From Candidatus Caldarchaeum sp. (lineage in GTDB: Archaea; Thermoproteota; Nitrososphaeria_A; Caldarchaeales; Caldarchaeaceae), in assembly GCA_038831915.1 (NCBI GenBank), contig JAWBKB010000003.1, forward strand, positions 665 through 64,664: a stretch of 64,000 nucleotides of DNA, given 5' to 3'. How positions within the stretch are numbered: position 1 is the stretch's first letter; the number at the start of each line of letters is the position of its first letter. Shown here one piece after another: positions 8,155-63,156 of the stretch. Under the pieces are notes generated by a model. The model did not search any database. It saw nothing but the letters and a program-made list of their open reading frames with translations, and had not been told where the DNA came from. The position numbers and the translations under genes were made by a program.

Positions 8155-10513
8155 CATGGCCGTAACCCGTTATTTCGGCGCGCGGGTCAAACGCCGCGAA
8201 GACCCACGGCTCATAACCGGACGCGGTAGATACACGCACAATATCGTTTTGCCGGGAATGGTTTACATCAGCTTCGTCAGAAGCCCTCATGCTCACGCCA
8301 CAATCAAGAAAATCAACACATCAAGGGCGGAAAAATCTTCGGGAGTTCTCCGTGTTTTGACGGGCAGCGACCTCGTTGATAAAGTCGTGTCTCTACCGTG
8401 TGCTTGGCAAATTCCCAACTCTGATTTGAAAGTTCCACGATACATGCCGTTGGCCGTCGACAAAGTCCGTTTTGTCGGCGACCCTGTCGCCGCGGTTGTC
8501 GCCTCATCTTTCGAAGAAGCCGTAGACGCTGCACACCTCGTCGAAGTCGAATACCAGAAACTACCCGCGGTAACCAATCCTGAAGAAGCCGTGAAAGACG
8601 GTGCGCCGCAGCTCTACGACGACGTCCCCAACAACAAGGCTTTCACTTGGAAAGCAGGAGACAGCGTCGACGAAATTTTCGCAAAAGCCGACGTTGTTGT
8701 TTCGCAGCGGCTTCTGAACAGCAGGCTTCAGCCCACACCGCTTGAAACAAGGGCCGTCGTCGCGGACTTTAACGCGACCACGCAGGAGGCCACGGTCTAT
8801 CTCACTACGCAGAACCCGCATGTTCACAGGTTTCTGCTATCAGCCGTAACAGGCATACCCGAACACAAGCTCCGCGTTGTTTCACATGACGTTGGAGGAG
8901 GGTTCGGTGCGAAAATCCACCTCTATCCGCCCGAAATCATCGCCCTACACGTCGCCAGTGAGCTGAAACGGCCCGTTAAATGGGTTGAAACCCGTTCCGA
9001 AAACTTCACAGCAACCATCCATGGCAGAGACCATGTTCAATACGTGGACGTGGCGGCTGACCGTGATGGCCGCGTTCTCGGCCTAAAAGTCAAATCTTAT
9101 GCAAACATGGGTGCTTATCTTTCGACGGCGGCTCCGGGAATTCCGACGATTCTGTTCGGCCCGATGTTGAGCGGGCCCTACCGCATACCCTCGATATACG
9201 TCGAAGTAGTCGGGGCTTTGACCAACACAGCTCCAGTTGATGCTTACAGAGGAGCGGGCAGGCCCGAAGCCACTTACATCCTCGAAAGAATGATAGACAT
9301 TTTGGCGCGCAAGCTCGGCAAAGACCCCGCCGAAATAAGGCTGAAAAACTTCATCCCGAAAGACCAATTCCCCTATTCAGCGAAGCCGATAGGACTTGTC
9401 TATGACAGCGGCGACTACGAGAAAGCGTTTCTCAAAGCCTTGGAGCTTGCACGATATCAGGAATGGCGCAACAAGCAGGCTGAGCTTCGCAAGCAGGGCC
9501 GTTTGATAGGCATTGGGATTTCGAGCTACATCGAGATTTGCGGGCTCGGGCCTTCTTCGGTGGCGAGAGCCACGGGCTTCGGTCTCGGTCTATGGGAAAG
9601 CACAATAATCAGAGTTCATCCCTCTGGCAAGGTTTCCGTCTTCATCGGCGGTCATCCACATGGACAAGGTGAAGAAACCACCTTTGCCCAAATCGTCGCC
9701 GACAGGCTTCAGATTCCAATCGAAGATGTGGAAATTCTGCACGGCGACACAGCGATGGTTCCGTTCGGCATGGGAACCTACGGCAGCAGAACAACACCTG
9801 TCGCAGGCGGCTCATTAGCCATTGCATGCGACCGAGTACTTGAAAAGGCGAGGAAAATCGCCGCACATCTATTCGAAGTAAGCGAAAAAGACGTTGAGTA
9901 TGGTGATGGAAAATTCTTTGTCCGCGGCCTTCCCGAAAAAAGCAAAAGCTTCGCCGAAGTGGCGTACGCAAGCTACGCCGCGGGTGCGAACGAGATTCCT
10001 CAGGGGCTTGAACCCGGGCTTGAAGTGACTGTTTTCTTTGACCCGCCGAACTTCACCTTCCCGTTCGGCACACATGTCTGCGTGACAGAGGTAGACAGAG
10101 AAACGGGAAAAGTGAAGATACTTGACTACGTCGCGGTTGATGACTGCGGCAACCGAATCAACCCCATGATAGTTGACGGACAGATTCACGGCGGAATCGC
10201 TCAGGGCCTTGCACAAGCACTGTATGAAGAGGCTTTCTATAACAGTGAAGGCCAGTTGTTGACAGGTGATTTGACGGAATATTTGGTGCCGTCCGCGCTC
10301 GAAGTGCCATTTATTCGCACGGATGAGACTGTGACACCTTCACCGGTCAATCCTCTCGGCGTGAAAGGCATCGGCGAAGCGGGAACAATCGCTTCGACTC
10401 CAGCAGTTGTCAACTCTGTTCTCGACGCCCTTGCACATCTCGGCGTGATACACATCGACATGCCTCTCAAACCTGAGAAAATCGTCGAGTCCCTCAAGAA
10501 ACCATCGTCATAA
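8155..10513 (+). CDS. Molybdopterin-binding large subunit of xanthine dehydrogenase/aldehyde oxidoreductase/CoxL family
   Basis: About 786 aa from ATG 8155 (MAVTRYFGARVKRREDPRLITGRGRYT). Motifs: GGGFG, AYRGAGRPE, GQGEETTFAQIVAD, AVDDCGNRINP. No adjacent FAD or 2Fe-2S subunit genes. Confidence 0.85.
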
Positions 10514-27771: not shown

Positions 27772-28747
27772 GTGATGTTAGCAGGCCGTGTCCTTGTTTT
27801 GGAAGGAGCAGGTGACATGGGCGGCGGCGTTGTCGAGAAACTCGTCGAGCTTGGAGTTGAAGTTGACATCGGGGACATCAACGTTGTTCATGCGTTTAAG
27901 GTTGCGGAATCTTTGAAGAACGCGGTGGACATAACAGTGGTAAAGACCGATGTGTTGTCCCGAACAGAATTAATCACTGTTGCCAGAAAATACGACGTCG
28001 TCGTCAACACCGTCGGGCCGTTTTACAAATATGGGTTTTTGGTGGCCGAAACCCTTGTCAAAGCCGGCGTCAACGCAGTGAATATTTGCTACGACCACGA
28101 CGCGGCTGAGAAGATACTGGGCTTGTTTGGAGAAGCTTCGGCGAATGATGTGACTTGTAACTGGTCTCGGATGGACTCAGGGAGTTTCTAACATTTTCGC
28201 GAATCGATGCTGTGAAGAGCTGGGGGGGAGAAGTTGACGCGGTGGACGTTGGTTGGTTTGGTTCGGCAGCTGATTCTAAAGGGCTGGCCGTTGTCATGCA
28301 TCTTTTCCACACGATAACCGGCAAAGCACCCATGTATTTGAACAGGGAAATCAGGCTTGTCGAAGCCGGGTCTTCGCCCATGTTTTTCGAGTTTCCCCGT
28401 GTTGGGCTGCTGAAGCTTTACTACGTGGGCCATCCAGAGCCGTTGATTTTGCCGAAACATCTCAGGGTTTTGAAAAGGGTTTCTGTGAGGGGTTGTCTGG
28501 TGCCGCAGTGGCAAAATAGTTTGGGCAGGATGTTGGTGAAGATAATTTGACAGCGACCGAGAAAAAGCTTGAAAGGCTTTCATGGTTTATTCACAAGATT
28601 GAGAACGCTTTTAGAGCTGGTGGGTTGGAGCTAAGCGGTGTAAAAGTCGTCGCCGAAAAAGACGGCGAAAAAGTGAGTTATTCAGCCGTGGACAGAATGC
28701 GGAAACTTAGCAACACCCGCAGCTCTGGGCACATACCTCATCCTTAA
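27772..28747 (+). pseudogene. Saccharopine dehydrogenase-like oxidoreductase, split over three reading frames
   Basis: N-terminal Rossmann domain 27772..28191. Middle part with HPEPLILPK motif 28212..28550 in another frame. C-terminal part 28547..28747 in a third. A G7 run at 28222..28228 sits at the first junction. Confidence 0.6.
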
Positions 28748-28818: not shown

Positions 28819-29771
28819 TTGAATAACTTGGCATCCAAACAATCAGACATTAAACTCCTACTCACGGTCTCCGTCGCCTGCATTCTTTTGTTTGTCACGG
28901 TTCATTTCGTCGCTGAACCAATTATCTCCGAAATACCGGTCACAAGGTCTGATATACGGTTCAACGCCACAAAGGCCTATGAATATGCGTCAAAGCTAGC
29001 GACCAGCTTTCCCAACAGACATACCGGAAGTGACGGAGCGTTTCAGGCGTTCATCTGGTTACAAGACGAGCTACGCGGCATGGGGTACGAGGTCTATGTT
29101 CAGGAATTCGAAGTCATGATAGAGGATCGTAGGAAAGGTAGAAACCTGTACGTGATACATGAAAGTGACAGAGCTGAAGCGGTGGCTGTGTTGGCGAACT
29201 ATGACATGGCTCCGATGAGTTTTCAGGCGGCCAGCGACACAGCCGGTCAGGTTGGGGTCTTGCTTGAGCTGGTCCGTTCGATAAAGGAAGTTTCCACGAA
29301 CAGGGCGGTCGTGTTTGCTCTTGTTGATTCAGAGGAATGGGGATGCAGGGCGCCAAACATTTTGTCGAGAATTATGAAGGACCGGCTCTCAAAGCGGTCA
29401 TAGTGGCTGAAGACCCGACAATAGGCAACATCATGGCAATATACCTCGAATCCATGGGCCAGTTCAAAGGCTATTCGCCTCTCTGGCTGAGGAAGCTTTG
29501 CAGAGACGTCGGCGAGCTTCTCGGAATAACTGTTCAAGACCCATATGGATTCGAGGAATACGTTTACAGGGCTGTCGACATTTCCTTCACGGACCAGGGC
29601 CCCATCTTGGCCAATGGAATTCCCGCCATCGAAGTATCAAGCCGAGGAGATAATCCCGAGCTCGCGGCAACCATCTACCACACGCCTTTGGACGTGATGG
29701 AATACATGCGACCACGTTCCTTCGACGTTTACGGCCGATATGTTTACACGTTTCTCAAAAGCCTGGACTAA
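28819..29771 (+). pseudogene. M28-family aminopeptidase, -1 frameshift near 29340
   Basis: Frame 1 ends ...VFALVDSEEWG. Frame 0 continues MQGAKHFVENY (M28 EEWG..G motif split across frames at tggggatg). Confidence 0.65.
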
Positions 29772-54394: not shown

Positions 54395-55807
54395 ATGGCG
54401 CAGACGGTGTTTGAGAAAATCTGGGATTCTCACGTGCTGGCTGAACGAGAGGACGGCATGACACTTCTCTACATCGACCGGCATTTAACACATGAAGTAA
54501 CATCCCCTCTCGCGTTCGAAAACCTGCGACATTCGGGCCGAACCGTTCGAAGACCAGACCTAACTTTCGCCGTCATGGACCACAACGTTCCCACCACGGA
54601 TAGAACCGAGCCGGTGAAAGACCTCATGTCAGCCGCCCAGATGCAGGCTTTGCAGCGAAACGCCAAACAGTATGGTATTGTTTTGTTCGACTATTTCAGC
54701 CCGTTCCAAGGTATCGTCCACGTCATCGGCCCAGAGCTCGGCCTCACGATTCCCGGCATCACTTTGGTCTGCGGCGACAGCCACACCTCGACTCACGGTG
54801 CTTTCGGCGCTCTTGCATTCGGAATCGGAACAAGCGAAGGAGAGCATGTCTTCGCAACCCAAACACTCTGGCTTAAGAAACCTAAGCAGATGAACATCGA
54901 GCTGAAAGGAAGCCTGCCAACCAACGTCTCGGCGAAAGACATCATCCTATACATCATCCGCACACTCGGAACCGGCGGCTGCATCGGCCACGTCGTCGAA
55001 TTCACAGGGCCTCTCACAAAGCAGCTCAGCGTCGAAGAAAGGATGACTCTCACCAACATGAGCATCGAAGGCGGCGCGAGGACAGCCATCATAGAGCCTG
55101 ACCAGAAGGTGTATGACTACATCCGCGACGCACCCTACAGCCCCAAAGGCCGTGAATGGGACGAAGCCAAGCATTACTGGGAGACGCTCAAAACAGACCC
55201 CAACGCCCGGTACGACGCGTTTCACAGCTTCGACGTCTCAAGCCTCGAGCCACAGGTTACGTGGGGCACAAATCCCGGCATGACAGTCGGCGTAACCGAA
55301 ACCGTTCCGTCACCGGATGACTTTGACGACCCAACTGAGAAAAAATCTGTGCAAAGGGCCCTCGAATACATGGGCCTCAAGCCGGGTATGAATATCTCCG
55401 ACATCAAAGTCGACACCGTTTTCATCGGTTCATGCACAAACGCAAGGCTGAGCGACCTGATCGACGTAGCTCGGATGGTGAAAGGCCGTAGGAAAGCTGA
55501 CGGTGTAAGGGTTTTGGTCGTTCCCGGCTCCCAGCTCACTAAACGGAGAGCGGAGAGAATGGGGCTTCACAGAATATTCATCGAAGCAGGGTTTGAATGG
55601 CGGAACAGCGGATGCAGCATGTGCATAGCGATGAACGAAGACCGGCTCAGACCAGGTGAAAGATGTCTCTCAACGAGCAACCGCAACTTCGAAAACAGAC
55701 AAGGCATCGGAGGACGCACACATCTCGCAAGCCCACTAACAGCCGCCGCAACAGCACTCACAGGAAAAATAACAGACCCAAGAACATTCGAACTACAATC
55801 ACTCTAA
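54395..55807 (+). CDS. 3-isopropylmalate dehydratase/homoaconitase large subunit (aconitase family)
   Basis: 470 aa from ATG 54395 (MAQTVFEKIWDSHV). DRHLTHEVTSP, GDSHT, GSCTN, Cys ligands CSMC. No adjacent small subunit. Confidence 0.85.
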   Translation: MAQTVFEKIWDSHVLAEREDGMTLLYIDRHLTHEVTSPLAFENLRHSGRTVRRPDLTFAVMDHNVPTTDRTEPVKDLMSAAQMQALQRNAKQYGIVLFDYFSPFQGIVHVIGPELGLTIPGITLVCGDSHTSTHGAFGALAFGIGTSEGEHVFATQTLWLKKPKQMNIELKGSLPTNVSAKDIILYIIRTLGTGGCIGHVVEFTGPLTKQLSVEERMTLTNMSIEGGARTAIIEPDQKVYDYIRDAPYSPKGREWDEAKHYWETLKTDPNARYDAFHSFDVSSLEPQVTWGTNPGMTVGVTETVPSPDDFDDPTEKKSVQRALEYMGLKPGMNISDIKVDTVFIGSCTNARLSDLIDVARMVKGRRKADGVRVLVVPGSQLTKRRAERMGLHRIFIEAGFEWRNSGCSMCIAMNEDRLRPGERCLSTSNRNFENRQGIGGRTHLASPLTAAATALTGKITDPRTFELQSL

Positions 55808-55811
55808 CGCT

Positions 55812-56192
55812 TTAAAGTTCCTCACTCCTCAAAACCCGCACATACTTCTTAGCGGTTTCAAACAGTTTCGAGTCATCGGTCACCAGGTCCAACCCGTTCT
55901 GAACAGCTGCTTGAAGATAAACGGCGTCGCAGAAAGTTATGTTTTCGCTTATCGCCAGCGACAATGCATCGCTAAAATTTACAGGAGCTGTTTTCATCAA
56001 CGCGATTAATGCCTGAAGTTTTTCAAAAACGGTTAGACAATCTTCATGTCTCATGCTGTCTCGTCTCTTCCATACGTAGTTTCCAACCTCAAACTTGACA
56101 AGCTCGACAGAGTAATGGCCGACAAGCTCCGCCGCCTTACCCAGCCAGACACAGTTTATCAACGCCGAAGCATCGAAAAGCCTATGTTTCAT
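55812..56192 (-). CDS. vapC: PIN-domain ribonuclease (VapC toxin)
   Basis: 126 aa. FDASALI...LVTDD acidic PIN residues. Overlaps upstream antitoxin gene by 11 nt. Confidence 0.75.
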   Translation of the reverse strand: MKHRLFDASALINCVWLGKAAELVGHYSVELVKFEVGNYVWKRRDSMRHEDCLTVFEKLQALIALMKTAPVNFSDALSLAISENITFCDAVYLQAAVQNGLDLVTDDSKLFETAKKYVRVLRSEEL

Positions 56193-56406
56193 CTCTGATT
56201 TCCCTGATCAGCCGCACGGTTTCCTCGGGGCTTGTCAGAAACTTCTTCACCTCGTCGAGCTCTTTCAAAAGAGTTCTTACTTTTCTCTTCTTCACCTCTT
56301 CCTCTAAAGCTCTTCTGATAACCTGCGATGGTTTTATCTTCAATCGTTTCAACTCTTGCTTCAGCTCGAGAGGTATTTTCGCGGAAACTGTTGCGTATTT
56401 CCTCAC
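56182..56406 (-). CDS. vapB: VapB-like antitoxin (small DNA-binding protein)
   Basis: 74 aa. TVSAKIPLELKQELKRLKIKPSQVIRRALEEE. Operon with PIN gene. Confidence 0.6.
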   Translation of the reverse strand: MRKYATVSAKIPLELKQELKRLKIKPSQVIRRALEEEVKKRKVRTLLKELDEVKKFLTSPEETVRLIREIRDET

Positions 56407-56629
56407 GGTTGTACCAAAAGTAATACTTCTTTGTAGTATAAAAAATTACTACCAAATTCTCAAACCACAAAGCAGCCTTTCCAAACCTTGCTACAAAAAC
56501 TCAGTCAAGAGCCATAGAGCTGTTGCTGACAGGGCTGTTATGAAAGTCGCGGAAGTTCAACGCGTGGCTGGTCTCATCGAGCAGTTGATGAACATGATGC
56601 AGAAAATCGGGCTCATGAAATTCACGTAG

Positions 56630-56953
56630 TCATATTTTTTGTGTTTTTGCTTTTTTCATGTAGTGCCGTGCTTCTTGTGGTGTTTGGATGTGGATTTCGA
56701 ACGGCGGCCGCACGCCGGCTCGTAGAAGAGCTGCACGCATCGCGGCGTGGTCTTTGTTCGTCACTATGAGAATGTCGATGTCGCTGACAAGCGAATGTCT
56801 TCCCTCCGCAACCGAGCCAAAGAGATAGATTTCGGCGTTTTCGTCCACCTCTGTTGCGGCATGTTTAATTTCCCGCAAATACTTTTCCAAATTTGCGAAG
56901 ATTTCTCTCCTCCTCATCGCTTCTTCGATAAGCAGTTTTTCAGACATTTGCAA
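56630..56953 (-). CDS. Minimal nucleotidyltransferase (MNT) antitoxin-like protein
   Basis: LFGSVAEGRHSLVSDIDILIV (GS...DxD NTase motif). Confidence 0.75.
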   Translation of the reverse strand: MQMSEKLLIEEAMRRREIFANLEKYLREIKHAATEVDENAEIYLFGSVAEGRHSLVSDIDILIVTNKDHAAMRAALLRAGVRPPFEIHIQTPQEARHYMKKAKTQKI

Positions 56954-57317
56954 TCAACTCCTTCACGGATTCCATTACCTTCTTAACCTCTTCTCCTCTG
57001 TACAGCCTCGGCACATATCTCGCAGTTATGTAAGCGTCTTCGAGCAAGCCCAGCTCGGTCAAATGCTTCTCCAACAACCTGTCAACCTCTTTGTTCTGTG
57101 AAACTTTTCCCAACATTTCCAGTAGAGCTGTTACGCTGTGTGACCGCGGATAGTCCACGCCGTTTTGCAGCAGCCTCGCCTTTAGGAAAAGCTGGAGGGC
57201 CTGCTCCAAGCTGAACATGGCCAGGTCATAGTAACCGACTTCATACTGATGCTCCGCGGTCTCGAGGAAACGTCGAGACCTCGTCAAAAGCATCTCTATT
57301 TCCTCTTTCCGGGACAT
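56940..57317 (-). CDS. HEPN domain protein (toxin-like partner of MNT)
   Basis: 125 aa, R-x4-H motif (YPRSHS). 14-nt overlap with the MNT gene. Confidence 0.75.
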   Translation of the reverse strand: MSRKEEIEMLLTRSRRFLETAEHQYEVGYYDLAMFSLEQALQLFLKARLLQNGVDYPRSHSVTALLEMLGKVSQNKEVDRLLEKHLTELGLLEDAYITARYVPRLYRGEEVKKVMESVKELIANV

Positions 57318-57511
57318 GGCGTCTGTCTGTGTTTACATGGACATGGTATATAAGGGGTCTTCGCCGAGAATGTTCGAGACAGTTAGATGTAAAAATCACT
57401 TGCATGACGAATTGCTGTTTTAGGCGTTGAAATGACGTCTCAGATGGCATAAGCTATTTAGCTCGTCGAGCGCTATCTTCTGTGGGAATTTGTTTGGTCA
57501 GTTTGGCTAAG

Positions 57512-60236
57512 ATGTTTAACCCACAGGTCGTTGCATTAATCGGTGCAAGCGATAGACCTGGCTCCGTTGGTCTTTCTGTTTTGCAGAACCTTTTGACTGG
57601 GAAGGCGAAGCGTCGTGTTTAAGCGGTCAACCCGAACCATGAAACCGCTTTAAACCTTCCCTGCCATCCATCTATTCGAAACGTTCCTGAACACGTTGAC
57701 CTAGCCGTTATCGCGACGCCCGCGCCGACCGTTCCAGCCGTAGTAGAGGAAAGTGGTGAAGCAGGGGTTGAAGGCGTTGTAATAATTTCCGCTGGGTTTA
57801 AGGAAACGGGGGAGGCGGGTAAACGGCTTGAAGAACAAATCGACATAATCCGCCAAAGATATGGGCTGCGTGTATTGGGGCCCAACTGCATGGGTTTCAT
57901 CAGGCCTTACATCAGTCTCAACGCGTCGTTCTTCAACAAAACACCCGAACCTGGTCAAATCGCCTTCATATCACAAAGCGGCGCCCTCGGCTCGTCCATC
58001 CTCGACTGGGCTGTCACCCGTCACATCGGCTTCAGCATGTTTGCATCGCTTGGCTCGATGCTGGACATCGATTTCGGAGACTTGATAGATTTCCTCGGAC
58101 AAGACCCCTACACGAAAAGCATTCTCCTCTACATGGAAAGCGTTGGAAACGCGCGGAAATTTATGAGCGCGGCGAGAGGATTCGCCAGAAACAAGCCAAT
58201 AATCATCATCAAGCCCGGAAAATTTGAAACAGCTGCGAAAGCCGCCAAATCCCATACAGGAGCTCTTGTGGGAAGTTTCGAAGTATACAGGGCGGCTTTC
58301 CGAAGAGCGGGAGCCGTCAGAGTAGATGAAATACAGGAATTGTTCAACTGCGCCAGCGTCCTCGATTCCAGACGTCTGCCCGTGGGCCTTAACCTCGCCG
58401 TAATAACCAACGCGGGAGGACTCGGAGTAATCACAGCCGACGCCATCGAAGAATACGGCGCGAAACTCGCAACACTTTCCGACAAAACCATAGATGAACT
58501 CGACGGTGTTTTACCCAGTTATTGGAGCCGTGGAAATCCAATCGACATTCTCGGAGACGCTGACGTCAGACGTTACACCACCGCTTTGAGGCTTTGTTTG
58601 AAAGACCGAAACATCGACGGCGTAATCATCATCTACACACCCCAGGGCGCGGCGGAGCCTAACGAGCTTGCGGAATCCGTGGTCTCCGTCGTCAGAGAAT
58701 ATGAATGGGTCAAGCCTGTTTTAACGGTTTGGGTCGGCGGAGATTCTCTAAATGAGGCGCGCAACATCTTCCACCGAAACGACATCCCGACCTACGACAC
58801 GCCTGAACAAGCCGTCAAAACATACATCTACATGTACAAGTACAAACGCAACCTCGAGCTTTTGTACGAAACACCCGAAGACCTTCCAATCGACCCTTCA
58901 CCGCCCAAAAACTTCCTCAAAATACTCGTCCGCAAAGCCTTGAACGAAGGCCGCTACGTTCTCACCCCTGACGAAGCCAACAAATTCCTAGACGTCTACA
59001 GAATACCAAGGCCCGACGGCGTACTCATTTCAAATATCCAAGAAGCACTTTCAGCCTCCCATCACATGGGCTTTCCCATAGCCCTCAAAATCGTATCACC
59101 TAAAATCGTTCACAAAACCGACGTCGGCGGAGTCGTGCTAAACATTTCATCAGACGAAGAACTACGCAAAGTATATTCAAACATGACTGAGGCCCTGAAA
59201 ACAGTCGTTCAGCAACCCGTCGATAATGCCGTCTTCGTCCAGAAAATGGTCGAACCCGTCCATTATGAATTGATTGTGGGCTCGAAGAAAGACCCTGACT
59301 TCGGGTCCGTGATAATGTTCGGCGCCGGCGGCGTCGCGACAGAGTTTTTAAGAGATACTTCGGTGGGGCTTCCTCAGCTAAACCAAGTGGTGGCCCGTCG
59401 GCTGATGGAAGAGACACGAATTTACTCGGTTTTGCAGAAAGGTCTTCGGAACAAGCCGCCCGCTGATTTGAGAAAACTCGAGGAGATAATCGTGAGGTTC
59501 TCCAACATCATCGTCGATTTGCCCGAAATCAAGGAAGCGGAAATCAATCCGTTGATTGTGTAATCAAGCGGCATTTACGCCGTCGACTTTAGGATTATTC
59601 TCGACCGTGAATACACGCAGACCGAAGAACAGTATCCGCATCTCGTCATCACACCGTATCCCACGAAATACGTGAAGCCGTGGAGGCTCAAAGACGGGCG
59701 ATGGGTTTTGCTCAGGCCCATCAAGCCCGAAGACGAAGAAATCGAATACGAACTCATCAAAAAACCTTTCCGAAGAATCGAGCAGGTTCAGATTCTTCAC
59801 CGTAATCCGGGAAAGCACGCATGACATGCTCGTCCGGTTCTGCAACATCGACTACGACCGCGAAATGGCCATCATCGCCGAATACACCGAAGGAGGGGAA
59901 CGGCGCAACGTCGGCGTCGGAAGACTGATCATCGAACCCGACAGGAAAAGAGAATTCGCCGTCCTCGTCGCCGATGACTTTCAAGGGAAAGGCATCGGCA
60001 CAAAGCTTGTCGACACACTTATCGAAGTCGCGATGGAGAAGAAACTCTCCTCAATCTACGGCATCATACTTCCTGAAAACACGCGGATGATTAATCTCTG
60101 CAAAAAACTCGGCTTCACAGTCAAGCATCGCGGCGAAGACGTCTACGTCGAGCTCAAACTCGACACAGGCATCGAACCACGGCCTAAACAACCTGCATCT
60201 CCTCAGCGAATCATGGAAGAAATTCGACAAACATAA
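57512..60236 (+). pseudogene. Pat-like protein: ADP-forming acyl-CoA synthetase (alpha+beta domains) fused to C-terminal GNAT acetyltransferase; interrupted by two in-frame TAA codons and an A6 frameshift
   Basis: MFNPQVVALIGASDRPGSVG...RRV-TAA(57620)-AVNPNHE, where homologs have Y-P-VNP. EINPLIV-TAA(59561)-SSGIYAVDFRIILD (conserved ACD C-terminus). GNAT domain (RFF...IDYDREMA...QGKGIG) enters at frame change near 59759..59764. Confidence 0.65.
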
Positions 60237-60378
60237 GCCACGCGGCCGAACCTTCATCCAACATGCTTCACATATCCTTCACAAAAAGAACATGAATCAT
60301 TTACATCGCTGATGTTTGTGAAGTTTTCATGTTTTTCCACAATCCTTTTTAAAGGCTGGTTGCTGTCGGGCCTTTAGA

Positions 60379-61344
60379 ATGCTGTGGAAATTTGATTTTG
60401 TGTATGAGGTTCCTGCTTCGCCGGGTGAAGTTTACGCTTTTTTCCGCAACGTGGAGAACATGAGTAAGGTCTGGCCCGCGGAAATGAAGATGCGACTGGT
60501 AGCTGTTGAAGGAGATGTTTACACGGTTCGGTTCCAGTTTCTCGGCCAAACCTACACCACGAAATTCCGAATCGAAGACAAGCCCGGCATGAAACAGTTC
60601 CACGAAACACTTAACTTTCCCTTCGGCAAGCTCCAGCATTCAATCGAAATCGAGCCCACAGGCCTTGGCAGCAAAGTCACGGAAAAAATGGAGCTGAGGT
60701 CGAACAACCCATTAGCTGGCTATTTCTTCAAAAAAATTCTCGACTACCGCCATGAAGCAATCAAGCATAGTTTCGGCGTCGTGGCGAAGCCTGTTTACCG
60801 CGACCCGTTCGAGCTCAGCACCGCTGCAGGCAACCTGATATCCATCGTCGGCGTCGCCGCCGCCTACCTACTCCTCATACTCCAGCCTTTCCAGTTCACG
60901 GGCGGACGATTCATCACAGGCATAATCTCATTCGCCCTGCTCTGGTTCTTCACCCATGACCTCGCTCACTACGTCGTCGGAAGAATCGCCGGCATACGCT
61001 TCAGCAACTACTACATCGGGCTCAGCAACATCGTCCGCCTCAACATCATACCGCAGCCGCTCAAAACACTACCGGTAGCCCTCGGCATAAAAATCGACCG
61101 AGAAAACAGCAAAGCAACACCACGCGGATACGCCGCGATGTACGCCGCCGGCCCCGTCGCATCCATGGCTTTTCCCCTCACCGTGCCAATAATCTTCCTC
61201 GCAAACAACGTCAACAGCATCGCAGGACTACTCCTCCTCATTTTCGCAATCGCAAACATCATCTTCACGTCGATTTTCAGTCCCAAAGCAGGATGCTTCG
61301 CAAAAGCACGAAAAGCACTCAAGAAAACAACCACGCAAATTTGA
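60379..61344 (+). CDS. SRPBCC (START/polyketide-cyclase-like) domain fused to a C-terminal multi-TM domain
   Basis: 321 aa. N-terminal about 140 aa soluble, then about 5 TM helices. Confidence 0.4.
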   Translation: MLWKFDFVYEVPASPGEVYAFFRNVENMSKVWPAEMKMRLVAVEGDVYTVRFQFLGQTYTTKFRIEDKPGMKQFHETLNFPFGKLQHSIEIEPTGLGSKVTEKMELRSNNPLAGYFFKKILDYRHEAIKHSFGVVAKPVYRDPFELSTAAGNLISIVGVAAAYLLLILQPFQFTGGRFITGIISFALLWFFTHDLAHYVVGRIAGIRFSNYYIGLSNIVRLNIIPQPLKTLPVALGIKIDRENSKATPRGYAAMYAAGPVASMAFPLTVPIIFLANNVNSIAGLLLLIFAIANIIFTSIFSPKAGCFAKARKALKKTTTQI

Positions 61345-61353
61345 CACTGTTAT

Positions 61354-61836
61354 TTAGAAGGCAGTTTCGAGCAGAACTGTTTGACCGCTTCGGCAAATGC
61401 TCTTTCCTCGTTCCCGTTGAAATGTTTGTCGGCAATCTCTGATAATCTCTTTAGGGTTTTTCTCTGAGTCTTGCAGCATGTATTTTTCTCGGAAAGTCTC
61501 TGTAACTTGATGTTCAAGGTTTTGAGGAACCGTGTAAACGAAAACCTTTACCGCACGGCCAGATTTATCATCTCTAACCTCTAGCGTATTTTCATCTAAC
61601 TGCGATATGCTGGGTTCGATGTTGTGCTTCTTACATCCTGTGTTGAAGAAGTTCTCCAGCCGCTCTTTCCGCAACTTTAACGGCTCATTATCCGAATCGG
61701 TTATCAACACAATCGGCTTGGTTATGCCCGCGCCCAGCAACTGAAGGAGAAGCCTTGTCGTCTTATCGAACAGCCGTGGGACGCCTCCGAAATCAGATAT
61801 CACAACATCGGAAGAAAAAACGTCGCAGCTCCTCAT
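61354..61836 (-). CDS. Small protein with TOPRIM-like acidic motif (IVLITDSDNEP); candidate RloB/AbiLii-like partner of the upstream ATPase
   Basis: 160 aa. DxD-E cluster resembling the TOPRIM DxD motif. Directly downstream of the fragmented AAA_21-type ATPase. Confidence 0.3.
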   Translation of the reverse strand: MRSCDVFSSDVVISDFGGVPRLFDKTTRLLLQLLGAGITKPIVLITDSDNEPLKLRKERLENFFNTGCKKHNIEPSISQLDENTLEVRDDKSGRAVKVFVYTVPQNLEHQVTETFREKYMLQDSEKNPKEIIRDCRQTFQRERGKSICRSGQTVLLETAF

Positions 61837-61944: not shown

Positions 61945-63156
61945 TCACACGCCCCTCAAATCCATCTGGAGCCCCTCCGCTTCACTAAGAGCCTCATCAC
62001 CGCTCAGAACTTCGCAATCAATCTCGCCACGCATCAGATACATCCTGACAACCTGCGTAATGTCTGCGGCTTTCTCAAGCAGCGATTCCAGAAACTTTTG
62101 AGCTGTGCATCGAAATGAAGGTTTGTATGTTGTATTTTTTGATGTATTCGGCCATGTGTGTTGTAGTAAGCTCGATGAAGCCGGGATGCAGGTTTGATTC
62201 AGGCTCTTCAAGAACCAGCGTACCTTCCTTCGACAAGGCAATCGCAAACGCAATACGCAACAAGGCCTGAAAACCATCACCGGTTGACGAAATAGGGATC
62301 GGTTTGTCCAAACCGTCGAAGAAAGCAAAAAGCTCTTCGCCTATGCTGCGTAAGTCTCTCAAATAGCCTATGTTCTCTTTCAGTGAATTCAGCACATCGT
62401 GAAATCGGCCCGACTGAATCAATTTGTTGTAAAGGGATGTTAGATCGATTTTGTACTCAGTTGTCACAGGAAAGACATTGGAGGGAGAAGGGTTGTCTGA
62501 ACGTATCAGTATTAATTGGTCGTGTCGTTTTACTATTATGACTATCTTCTCAAAATCGACATCGCTTAGACAAATTTTGGGAAGAGACTCTATCTGTTTA
62601 ATCCGCTCGACCAATTCTATCATTCTTCTTCTTTCGTCGATGGGTCCGGTAAACTCGTAAGGCACTGCTGTGCGGTTTGCCAACGTGAAACCAGCTGCTT
62701 TGCCTCTCATAATACAGGTCTGGAAAGCCTGCTTCACAGTAAATGATGAGAAGCTCGTTTGTTGTTCCACCCTTTTGTCGTTAACTTTATCCGTGCTCGG
62801 TCATATCCGATTTTAATCCAGTAAATCAGGTTTCACTCTTTGCCAAACATGCGTGTTAGCAGGTCAACGTTTAGGGCATCTGTGTAGCCTGTTGGCGCGG
62901 TGGCTGCGATGGTTACGGCTTCGAGTACGCTGGATTTTCCAGTGTTGTCGCGTCCGACAAATATGTTGATGGGTTTTGTGGCTAGGTCCAGTTTGCCTAT
63001 TCCTCGGAAGTTTTTGACCGTTAGCCTGTTAATCCACACCACCAGCTCAGCATCTGACCATCTCAACGCGATATTAATCTGTTGAAGACGACAACACAGG
63101 TTGTGCTGGGTGAATTTTTGAACATTTCTTATTAGCAAGCTTAACTGAAGCTGCAC
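61945..63156 (-). pseudogene. ABC/AAA_21-type (OLD/AbiLi/RloA-like) ATPase fragmented into three ORFs
   Basis: N-terminal fragment with Walker A FVGRDNTGKSSVLEAV (62833..63156). Middle fragment with signature-like STGDGFQALL, Walker B LVLEEPESNLHP and H-loop (62075..62770). C-terminal fragment 61945..62328. Frames differ. Confidence 0.5.

Follow-up and report, generated by a model that had tools for sequence, protein, structure and literature searches.

The pat locus at positions 57512–60236 (+ strand) of a 64,000-nucleotide stretch of Candidatus Caldarchaeum sp., a hot-spring archaeon (contig JAWBKB010000003.1; the whole stretch is hereafter the window), reads as a pseudogene of a type I GNAT protein acetyltransferase with the Pat/PatZ architecture. 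We assign a probability of roughly 0.93 to the locus being a recently inactivated unitary pseudogene, the single syntenic pat copy in one Candidatus Caldarchaeum species, that is decaying neutrally. In the sampled population of this species, two founder lesions are fixed and four later ones are lineage-specific. The locus belongs to the Pat family by descent, but as its domains are not encoded in one uninterrupted polypeptide, its place in annotation is that of a pseudogene, not of a functional member.

Gene identity and lesions in the window copy

The repaired reading of pat comprises 907 amino acids (aa), across which Pfam domains follow in the order CoA_binding_2 (aa 6–130), Succ_CoA_lig (aa 147–284), Ligase_CoA_2 (aa 296–450), ATP-grasp_5 (aa 475–697), and GNAT. 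An NDP-forming acyl-CoA-synthetase-like regulatory region (57527..59602, +; Pfam, NCBIfam) is N-terminal, and the GNAT acetyltransferase domain (59705..60119, +; aa 732–869; Pfam Acetyltransf_1/3/7 and alignment to PatZ), split by a frameshift, is C-terminal. Type I GNATs are defined by these two parts in this order (bioRxiv 10.1101/2024.11.12.623305). Escherichia coli PatZ (YfiQ/Pka; PDB 9it0/9isq) and Salmonella enterica Pat (PMC3195501) share the domain order of repaired pat, and aa 2–883 align end to end with residues 10–878 of PatZ 9it0 (E = 6e-155). In this alignment E814 is equivalent to PatZ E809, whose catalytic role has been described (bioRxiv 10.1101/2024.11.12.623305). The acetyl-CoA motif is also retained, as QGKGIG, which fits Q/RxxGxG/A; the Gly/Ala adjoining the catalytic Glu is deleted. 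Domain order and the PatZ alignment thus bear out a preliminary description of the locus, which had proposed a Pat-type fusion of an ADP-forming acyl-CoA synthetase (ACD) with a GNAT domain.

Catalytic ACDs, including the Candidatus Korarchaeum ACD (4xyl) and 4-hydroxybutyrate-CoA ligase (8wzu; E = 1e-128), are homologous to the first roughly 700 aa of pat, which also scores 527 bits against NCBIfam TIGR02717. NCBIfam scores stay under the equivalog cut-offs (531.8 versus 1300; 527.1 versus 567), and the GNAT fusion at the C terminus places pat in the Pat family rather than among the catalytic ACDs. By the annotated starts of orthologs, the true pat start may be TTG 57494 instead of ATG 57512. 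A second open reading frame (ORF) of 907 aa, at 7790–10513, was considered as an intact pat paralog and rejected; its translation, inspected by eye, resembles a molybdopterin oxidoreductase or CO-dehydrogenase large subunit.

Unlike PatZ and Pat, the Caldarchaeum gene is archaeal and inactivated, by two nonsense codons, a frameshift, and a codon deletion, and it has no uninterrupted ORF. Intact archaeal orthologs from Candidatus Caldarchaeum and Calditenuaceae metagenome-assembled genomes (MAGs; e.g., MCS7110307.1, MCS7095015.1) are about 912–918 aa long and 79–84% identical in aa sequence; the nearest are named, where a name is given, [quoted passage not shown]. At the lesion sites they carry, unlike the window copy, Tyr, Ser/Ala, and a run of five A, and the Gly/Ala ahead of the catalytic Glu is still present in them. 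DNA was compared for three intact orthologs: L012 (protein P0001), L013 (P0002), and L014 (P0003, which is MCS7095015.1), at 84%, 80%, and 79% aa identity to repaired pat. L012 is 79% identical to the window in nucleotides (nt), with a synonymous divergence (dS) of about 1.2. L012 and L013 are syntenic, both sharing the gene pair upstream of pat (HEPN/nucleotidyltransferase) and L013 the aconitase gene as well; L012 additionally aligns just 3' of pat, at about 87% identity to the start of the downstream gene orf321. L014 sits in a different gene neighbourhood. Relative to these intact orthologs, two of them syntenic, the disabling mutations of the window copy are derived.

The frame from ATG 57512 reads MFNPQVVALIGASDRPGSVG...KRRV, meets TAA at 57620..57622 (+), and continues with AVNPNHET (RRV*AVNP). 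This stop replaces the Tyr of the YxVNP motif, as the preliminary description had recognized: the codon-37 column holds Y 93, F 22, and H 3 among 118 full-length homologs. Codon 37 is TAC in L012 and L013 and TAT in L014, so that Y37* (TAC/TAT>TAA) is a single change at the third codon position. The frame then runs 646 codons on to a second TAA at 59561..59563 (+), in the context EINPLIV*SSGIYAVDFR. Here codon 684 is TCA in L012, GCG in L013, and GCA in L014, and S684* (TCA>TAA) corresponds to a single C>A change. The preliminary description held that this stop, too, occupies a conserved position. That is true of its surroundings, as invariant N679-P680 and D692/R694 flank it; its own column, by contrast, shows only moderate conservation (S 76, T 17, C 14, and A 7 in the 118 homologs).

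Past the second TAA, the starting frame stops 87 codons on at TGA 59822–59824, after GKHA. To reach the GNAT domain, which is in the +1 frame, one base must be skipped at the A6 run 59759..59764 (+), which gives ELIKNLSEESSRFRFF; dropping one A from the run yields ...EYELIKNLSEESSRFRFF... to the terminator TAA 60234–60236. Where the window reads ATC AAA AAA CCT T, L012 reads ATC AAA AAC CTT, a 1-nt insertion that turned A5, the state of the intact orthologs, into A6. In codon alignment with the orthologs, Y37*, S684*, and A5>A6 are each a single-nucleotide event. These three lesions lie where the preliminary description had located them, and its dependence of the GNAT frame on a shift at A6 holds. 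It missed a fourth: an in-frame 3-bp deletion of a Gly/Ala codon between AGA (R813) and GAA (E814), at 59949..59954 (+; breakpoint 59951/59952). The deleted column, just before the catalytic Glu, is filled in all 118 homologs (G 95, A 23).

Lesions across the population and relaxed constraint

The population sample consists of the window and 11 other assemblies (L001–L011) of the same Candidatus Caldarchaeum population: seven NCBI MAGs (GCA_038830025, GCA_038832125, GCA_038885335, GCA_038827665, GCA_038828585, GCA_038741045, and GCA_038831565) and four Logan assemblies (SRR27730016, SRR27730017, SRR27730019, and SRR17794512). Over pat, these 11 copies are 98.6–100% identical to the window in nt and fall into several haplotypes of single-nucleotide polymorphisms (SNPs). 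TAA at codon 37 and the A6 run are each present in 12 of 12 copies. Because both recur across distinct SNP haplotypes, the lesions are real rather than errors.

The remaining lesions vary among strains. Codon 684 is TAA in 6 of 12 copies (the window, L001, and L008–L011), which carry no other stop and lack the Gly codon before the catalytic Glu; it is TCA (Ser) in L002–L007. L005 has this Ser codon, no other stop, and the Gly codon deleted. L002–L004 combine the Ser codon and the Gly deletion with a further stop, W724 TGG>TGA, and L006 and L007 carry G212 GGA>TGA and keep the Gly codon as GGA, so that the codon deletion is found in 10 of 12 copies. This variation is decisive: further independent knock-outs of a gene that is already broken are expected under neutral decay, whereas programmed read-through or frameshifting would lead one to expect the opposite. 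Among the four nonsense mutations, C>A/G>T transversions account for at least two and probably three (TCA>TAA at 59562, GGA>TGA at 58145 in L006/L007, and TAC>TAA at 57622 if the ancestor had TAC), a sample too small for a call of mutational bias. Transversions of this class are typical of oxidative guanine damage.

The lesion states are read directly from the copies, and we infer their order. In the ancestor of the sampled population, the Tyr codon 37 (TAC or TAT) would have become TAA and the A5 run would have gained one A; either lesion alone would abolish full-length Pat. With selection gone, sublineages would then have acquired further lesions independently: deletion of the Gly codon in most strains, S684 TCA>TAA in the window lineage, W724 TGG>TGA in L002–L004, G212 GGA>TGA in L006/L007, and substitutions at family-invariant positions. 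The outcome would be that no full-length Pat is made. Inactivation is younger than the split from the nearest intact orthologs and older than the coalescence of the sampled population (≤1.4% nt divergence).

Substitutions in the window copy point to relaxed constraint. Repaired pat departs from six columns that show no variation among the other 118 homologs (C81S, A516S, G573A, P622Q, L627V, and F670L), whereas those homologs have a median of 0 such departures and never more than 5; two of the six, at 516 and 670, are polymorphic in the population. The preliminary description had argued that a dead gene would have lost conserved residues, unlike this one; the six broken columns and the lost residue beside the catalytic Glu show that this gene is in fact losing them. 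Polymorphisms within pat across the population comprise 14 synonymous, 23 nonsynonymous, and 3 nonsense changes. Because the flanking genes had too few polymorphisms for a ratio of nonsynonymous to synonymous polymorphism (pN/pS), we compared the density of segregating sites, using the same eight sequences that fully cover 54890–61836 for both regions: pat has 15 sites in 2725 nt and the flanks 7 in 4222 nt (odds ratio 3.3; Fisher P = 0.0075). Constraint on the gene is thus relaxed after its inactivation, as seen in S684*, W724*, G212*, the codon deletion, the six invariant-column departures, and the 3.3-fold site density. Seven of the 15 segregating sites of pat lie within 110 nt (58968, 58969, 59000, 59026, 59027, 59057, and 59078); they may mark a short recombination tract or a cluster of mutations.

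Longer-term divergence carries little of this signal. The ratio of nonsynonymous to synonymous divergence (dN/dS) is 0.10 between the window and L012, and 0.09 between L012 and L013, both intact. In a relative-rate test with P0002 and P0003 as outgroups, lineage-specific aa changes number 44 in the window and 40 in P0001, a nonsignificant difference that fits recent inactivation but is no evidence on its own. Since these values are so close, almost all divergence built up while pat was functional. Recent inactivation accounts for a gene that still looks conserved, and three lesions in an otherwise conserved gene are the expected look of a young pseudogene.

Automatic annotation divides the locus into a 557-aa "acetate--CoA ligase family protein", a 50-aa ORF, and a 136–143-aa GNAT piece. 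One such protein (P0085; 557 aa, Candidatus Caldarchaeum sp.) is 99.6% identical, with two differences, to the stretch of pat between the two TAA codons, and its 90% cluster contains nine fragments of varied lengths from several MAGs. These annotated fragments are most likely nonfunctional relics. On the opposite strand, a 90–93-aa ORF at 57619–57900 (−) is annotated as "hypothetical protein" in several MAGs and has no Pfam match; it is most likely a gene-caller artefact that fills the gap after the first TAA.

Alternative accounts of the interrupted frame

It is extremely improbable that the true pat is intact, with TAY, TCA, and A5, and that the lesions are sequencing or assembly artefacts, although the preliminary description had allowed for plain assembly error. 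Homopolymer indels are a common error class, and the window holds a second homopolymer-associated frameshift, in a Peptidase_M28 gene at a G4 run (29339–29342). That frameshift, however, is likewise reproduced on at least five contigs from other MAGs, and TAA-37 and A6 occur in all 11 other assemblies, which differ from one another by SNPs. The equivalent A-run context was assembled as A5 in L012, and the remaining window is densely filled with long intact ORFs of 500–930 aa. Programmed recoding, which the preliminary description implied, would instead restore full-length Pat by read-through or reassignment of TAA together with a programmed +1 frameshift or transcriptional slippage at A6. The fixation of TAA-37 and A6 throughout the population and the exact placement of the first TAA at a conserved Tyr speak for it, and A-runs can support RNA-polymerase slippage; A6, however, is a shorter run than those in which efficient transcriptional slippage is known. 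The required +1 shift would have to take place at AAA-AAA-CCT, a site without a stop or a rare (hungry) codon. The putative recoding sites are not conserved, orthologs having sense codons and A5; the second TAA is polymorphic, other strains carry additional, independent TGA stops elsewhere, and the residue adjoining the catalytic Glu is lost. Reassignment of TAA to sense is excluded, as TAA is the commonest terminator in the window and closes 29 of its 62 longest nonoverlapping ORFs, pat included. No Rfam element was found in 56000–61500, and no suppressor tRNA in the window, where the sole tRNA is tRNA-Val(CAC); a promoter and terminator scan of the pat region gave nothing relevant. Taken as a whole, recoding is highly unlikely.

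A split gene with residual function, in which the 557-aa Succ_CoA_lig/Ligase_CoA/ATP-grasp ORF (57890–59563), the 136–143-aa GNAT ORF ending at 60236, or both retain a role, has a slim chance of being correct. NCBI annotation calls both ORFs as proteins in several MAGs, and archaeal ADP-forming acyl-CoA synthetases do occur as separate subunits (PDB 4xyl A/B). Yet the 557-aa fragment has no N-terminal CoA-binding domain (aa 1–126) and is interrupted in L006/L007 by G212*, and the GNAT fragment is missing about 40 residues from the start of its domain as well as the Gly before the catalytic Glu. Both fragments also contain segregating nonsynonymous changes and an indel. In E. coli PatZ, activity falls strongly when the regulatory domain is truncated or mutated (bioRxiv 10.1101/2024.11.12.623305). 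There is, finally, a very small probability that TAA-37 and A6 are not fully inactivating, so that rare read-through combined with slippage yields trace full-length Pat. The locus would then be a "leaky", down-tuned acetyltransferase gene, at least in strains without later stops, such as L005.

Several points weigh against a recently inactivated, neutrally decaying unitary pseudogene. Low-level read-through, transcriptional slippage, or fragment activity would each be compatible with the sequence alone. The word unitary rests on the syntenic locus, and a second intact pat elsewhere in the genome would lie outside that comparison; a scan of genome contigs for a second pat copy matched only other species, at ≤80% identity. 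Several of the MAGs may share one study and site, in which case the assemblies are independent but the populations perhaps are not. Lineage-specific aa change overall is not raised in the window copy, and the signal of relaxed constraint therefore rests on the invariant columns, the extra lesions, and the polymorphism density. The pN/pS contrast with the flanks is uninformative, the flanks having 2 synonymous versus 9 nonsynonymous polymorphisms.

Gene decay nearby and the Pat family in Archaea

Other genes of the window are also damaged. The Peptidase_M28 gene (28819–29771, +) is divided between two overlapping ORFs, 28819–29403 (profile positions 5–71) and 29337–29771 (69–191), by a 1-nt frameshift at or near the G4 run. 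At least five contigs from other Caldarchaeum MAGs have the same two ORFs called, which makes this gene a second population-wide pseudogene in the window. An AAA_15/AAA_21 (AbiEii/OLD-like) ATPase lies in two pieces within 62075–63156 (−), of which 62833–63156 matches only the N-terminal, Walker-A part of the profile (3–45) and 62075–62770 only the C-terminal part (269–372); it is probably another degraded gene. A saccharopine-dehydrogenase-like gene (27772–28747) is possibly fragmented: a 139-aa ORF at 27772–28191 (+) matches only the N-terminal NADP-binding domain, and the short ORFs that follow, 28212–28550 and 28547–28747, have no Pfam match. Scattered gene decay appears to characterize this species, and against that background the pat pseudogene is even less remarkable.

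Directly upstream of pat lies a toxin–antitoxin-like pair of HEPN and nucleotidyltransferase (MNT-type) genes (56630–57317, −), whose position is kept beside the orthologs L012 and L013. Downstream, orf321 (60379–61344) encodes a 321-aa Polyketide_cyc2/M50-like protein. In L009 (GCA_038828585), otherwise 100% identical to the window, this gene is split by a 99-bp insertion (L009 positions 5723–5821, at about 60611/60612 of the window), which may be real or may stem from assembly.

The preliminary description regarded a full-length ACD-GNAT fusion as unusual for an archaeon; the homologs do not support this. A database search returned hundreds of uninterrupted full-length homologs at 55–84% identity, and a genome scan found the fusion in Calditenuaceae, Caldarchaeum, Wolframiiraptor, Hadarchaeum, Bathyarchaeia, Nitrososphaerales, Nitrosopumilales, ANME-1, Methanosarcinales, and Methanoperedens, as well as in Dehalococcoidia, Nitrospirae, and Syntrophorhabdus. 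The fusion is common in Archaea.

A literature search on Caldarchaeum and pseudogenes found no papers. The pat pseudogene is nothing new in kind but an ordinary decaying pseudogene, and its significance beyond annotation is small. For annotation, the appropriate correction is to join the public MAG entries named "acetate--CoA ligase family protein", "hypothetical protein", and GNAT protein into a single entry marked as a pat pseudogene. In the population sample, the stepwise decay of a gene is captured cleanly. Pat-type lysine acetylation appears to have been given up by this Caldarchaeum species, whereas an intact, still uncharacterized type I Pat persists in its sister species and in many other Archaea.

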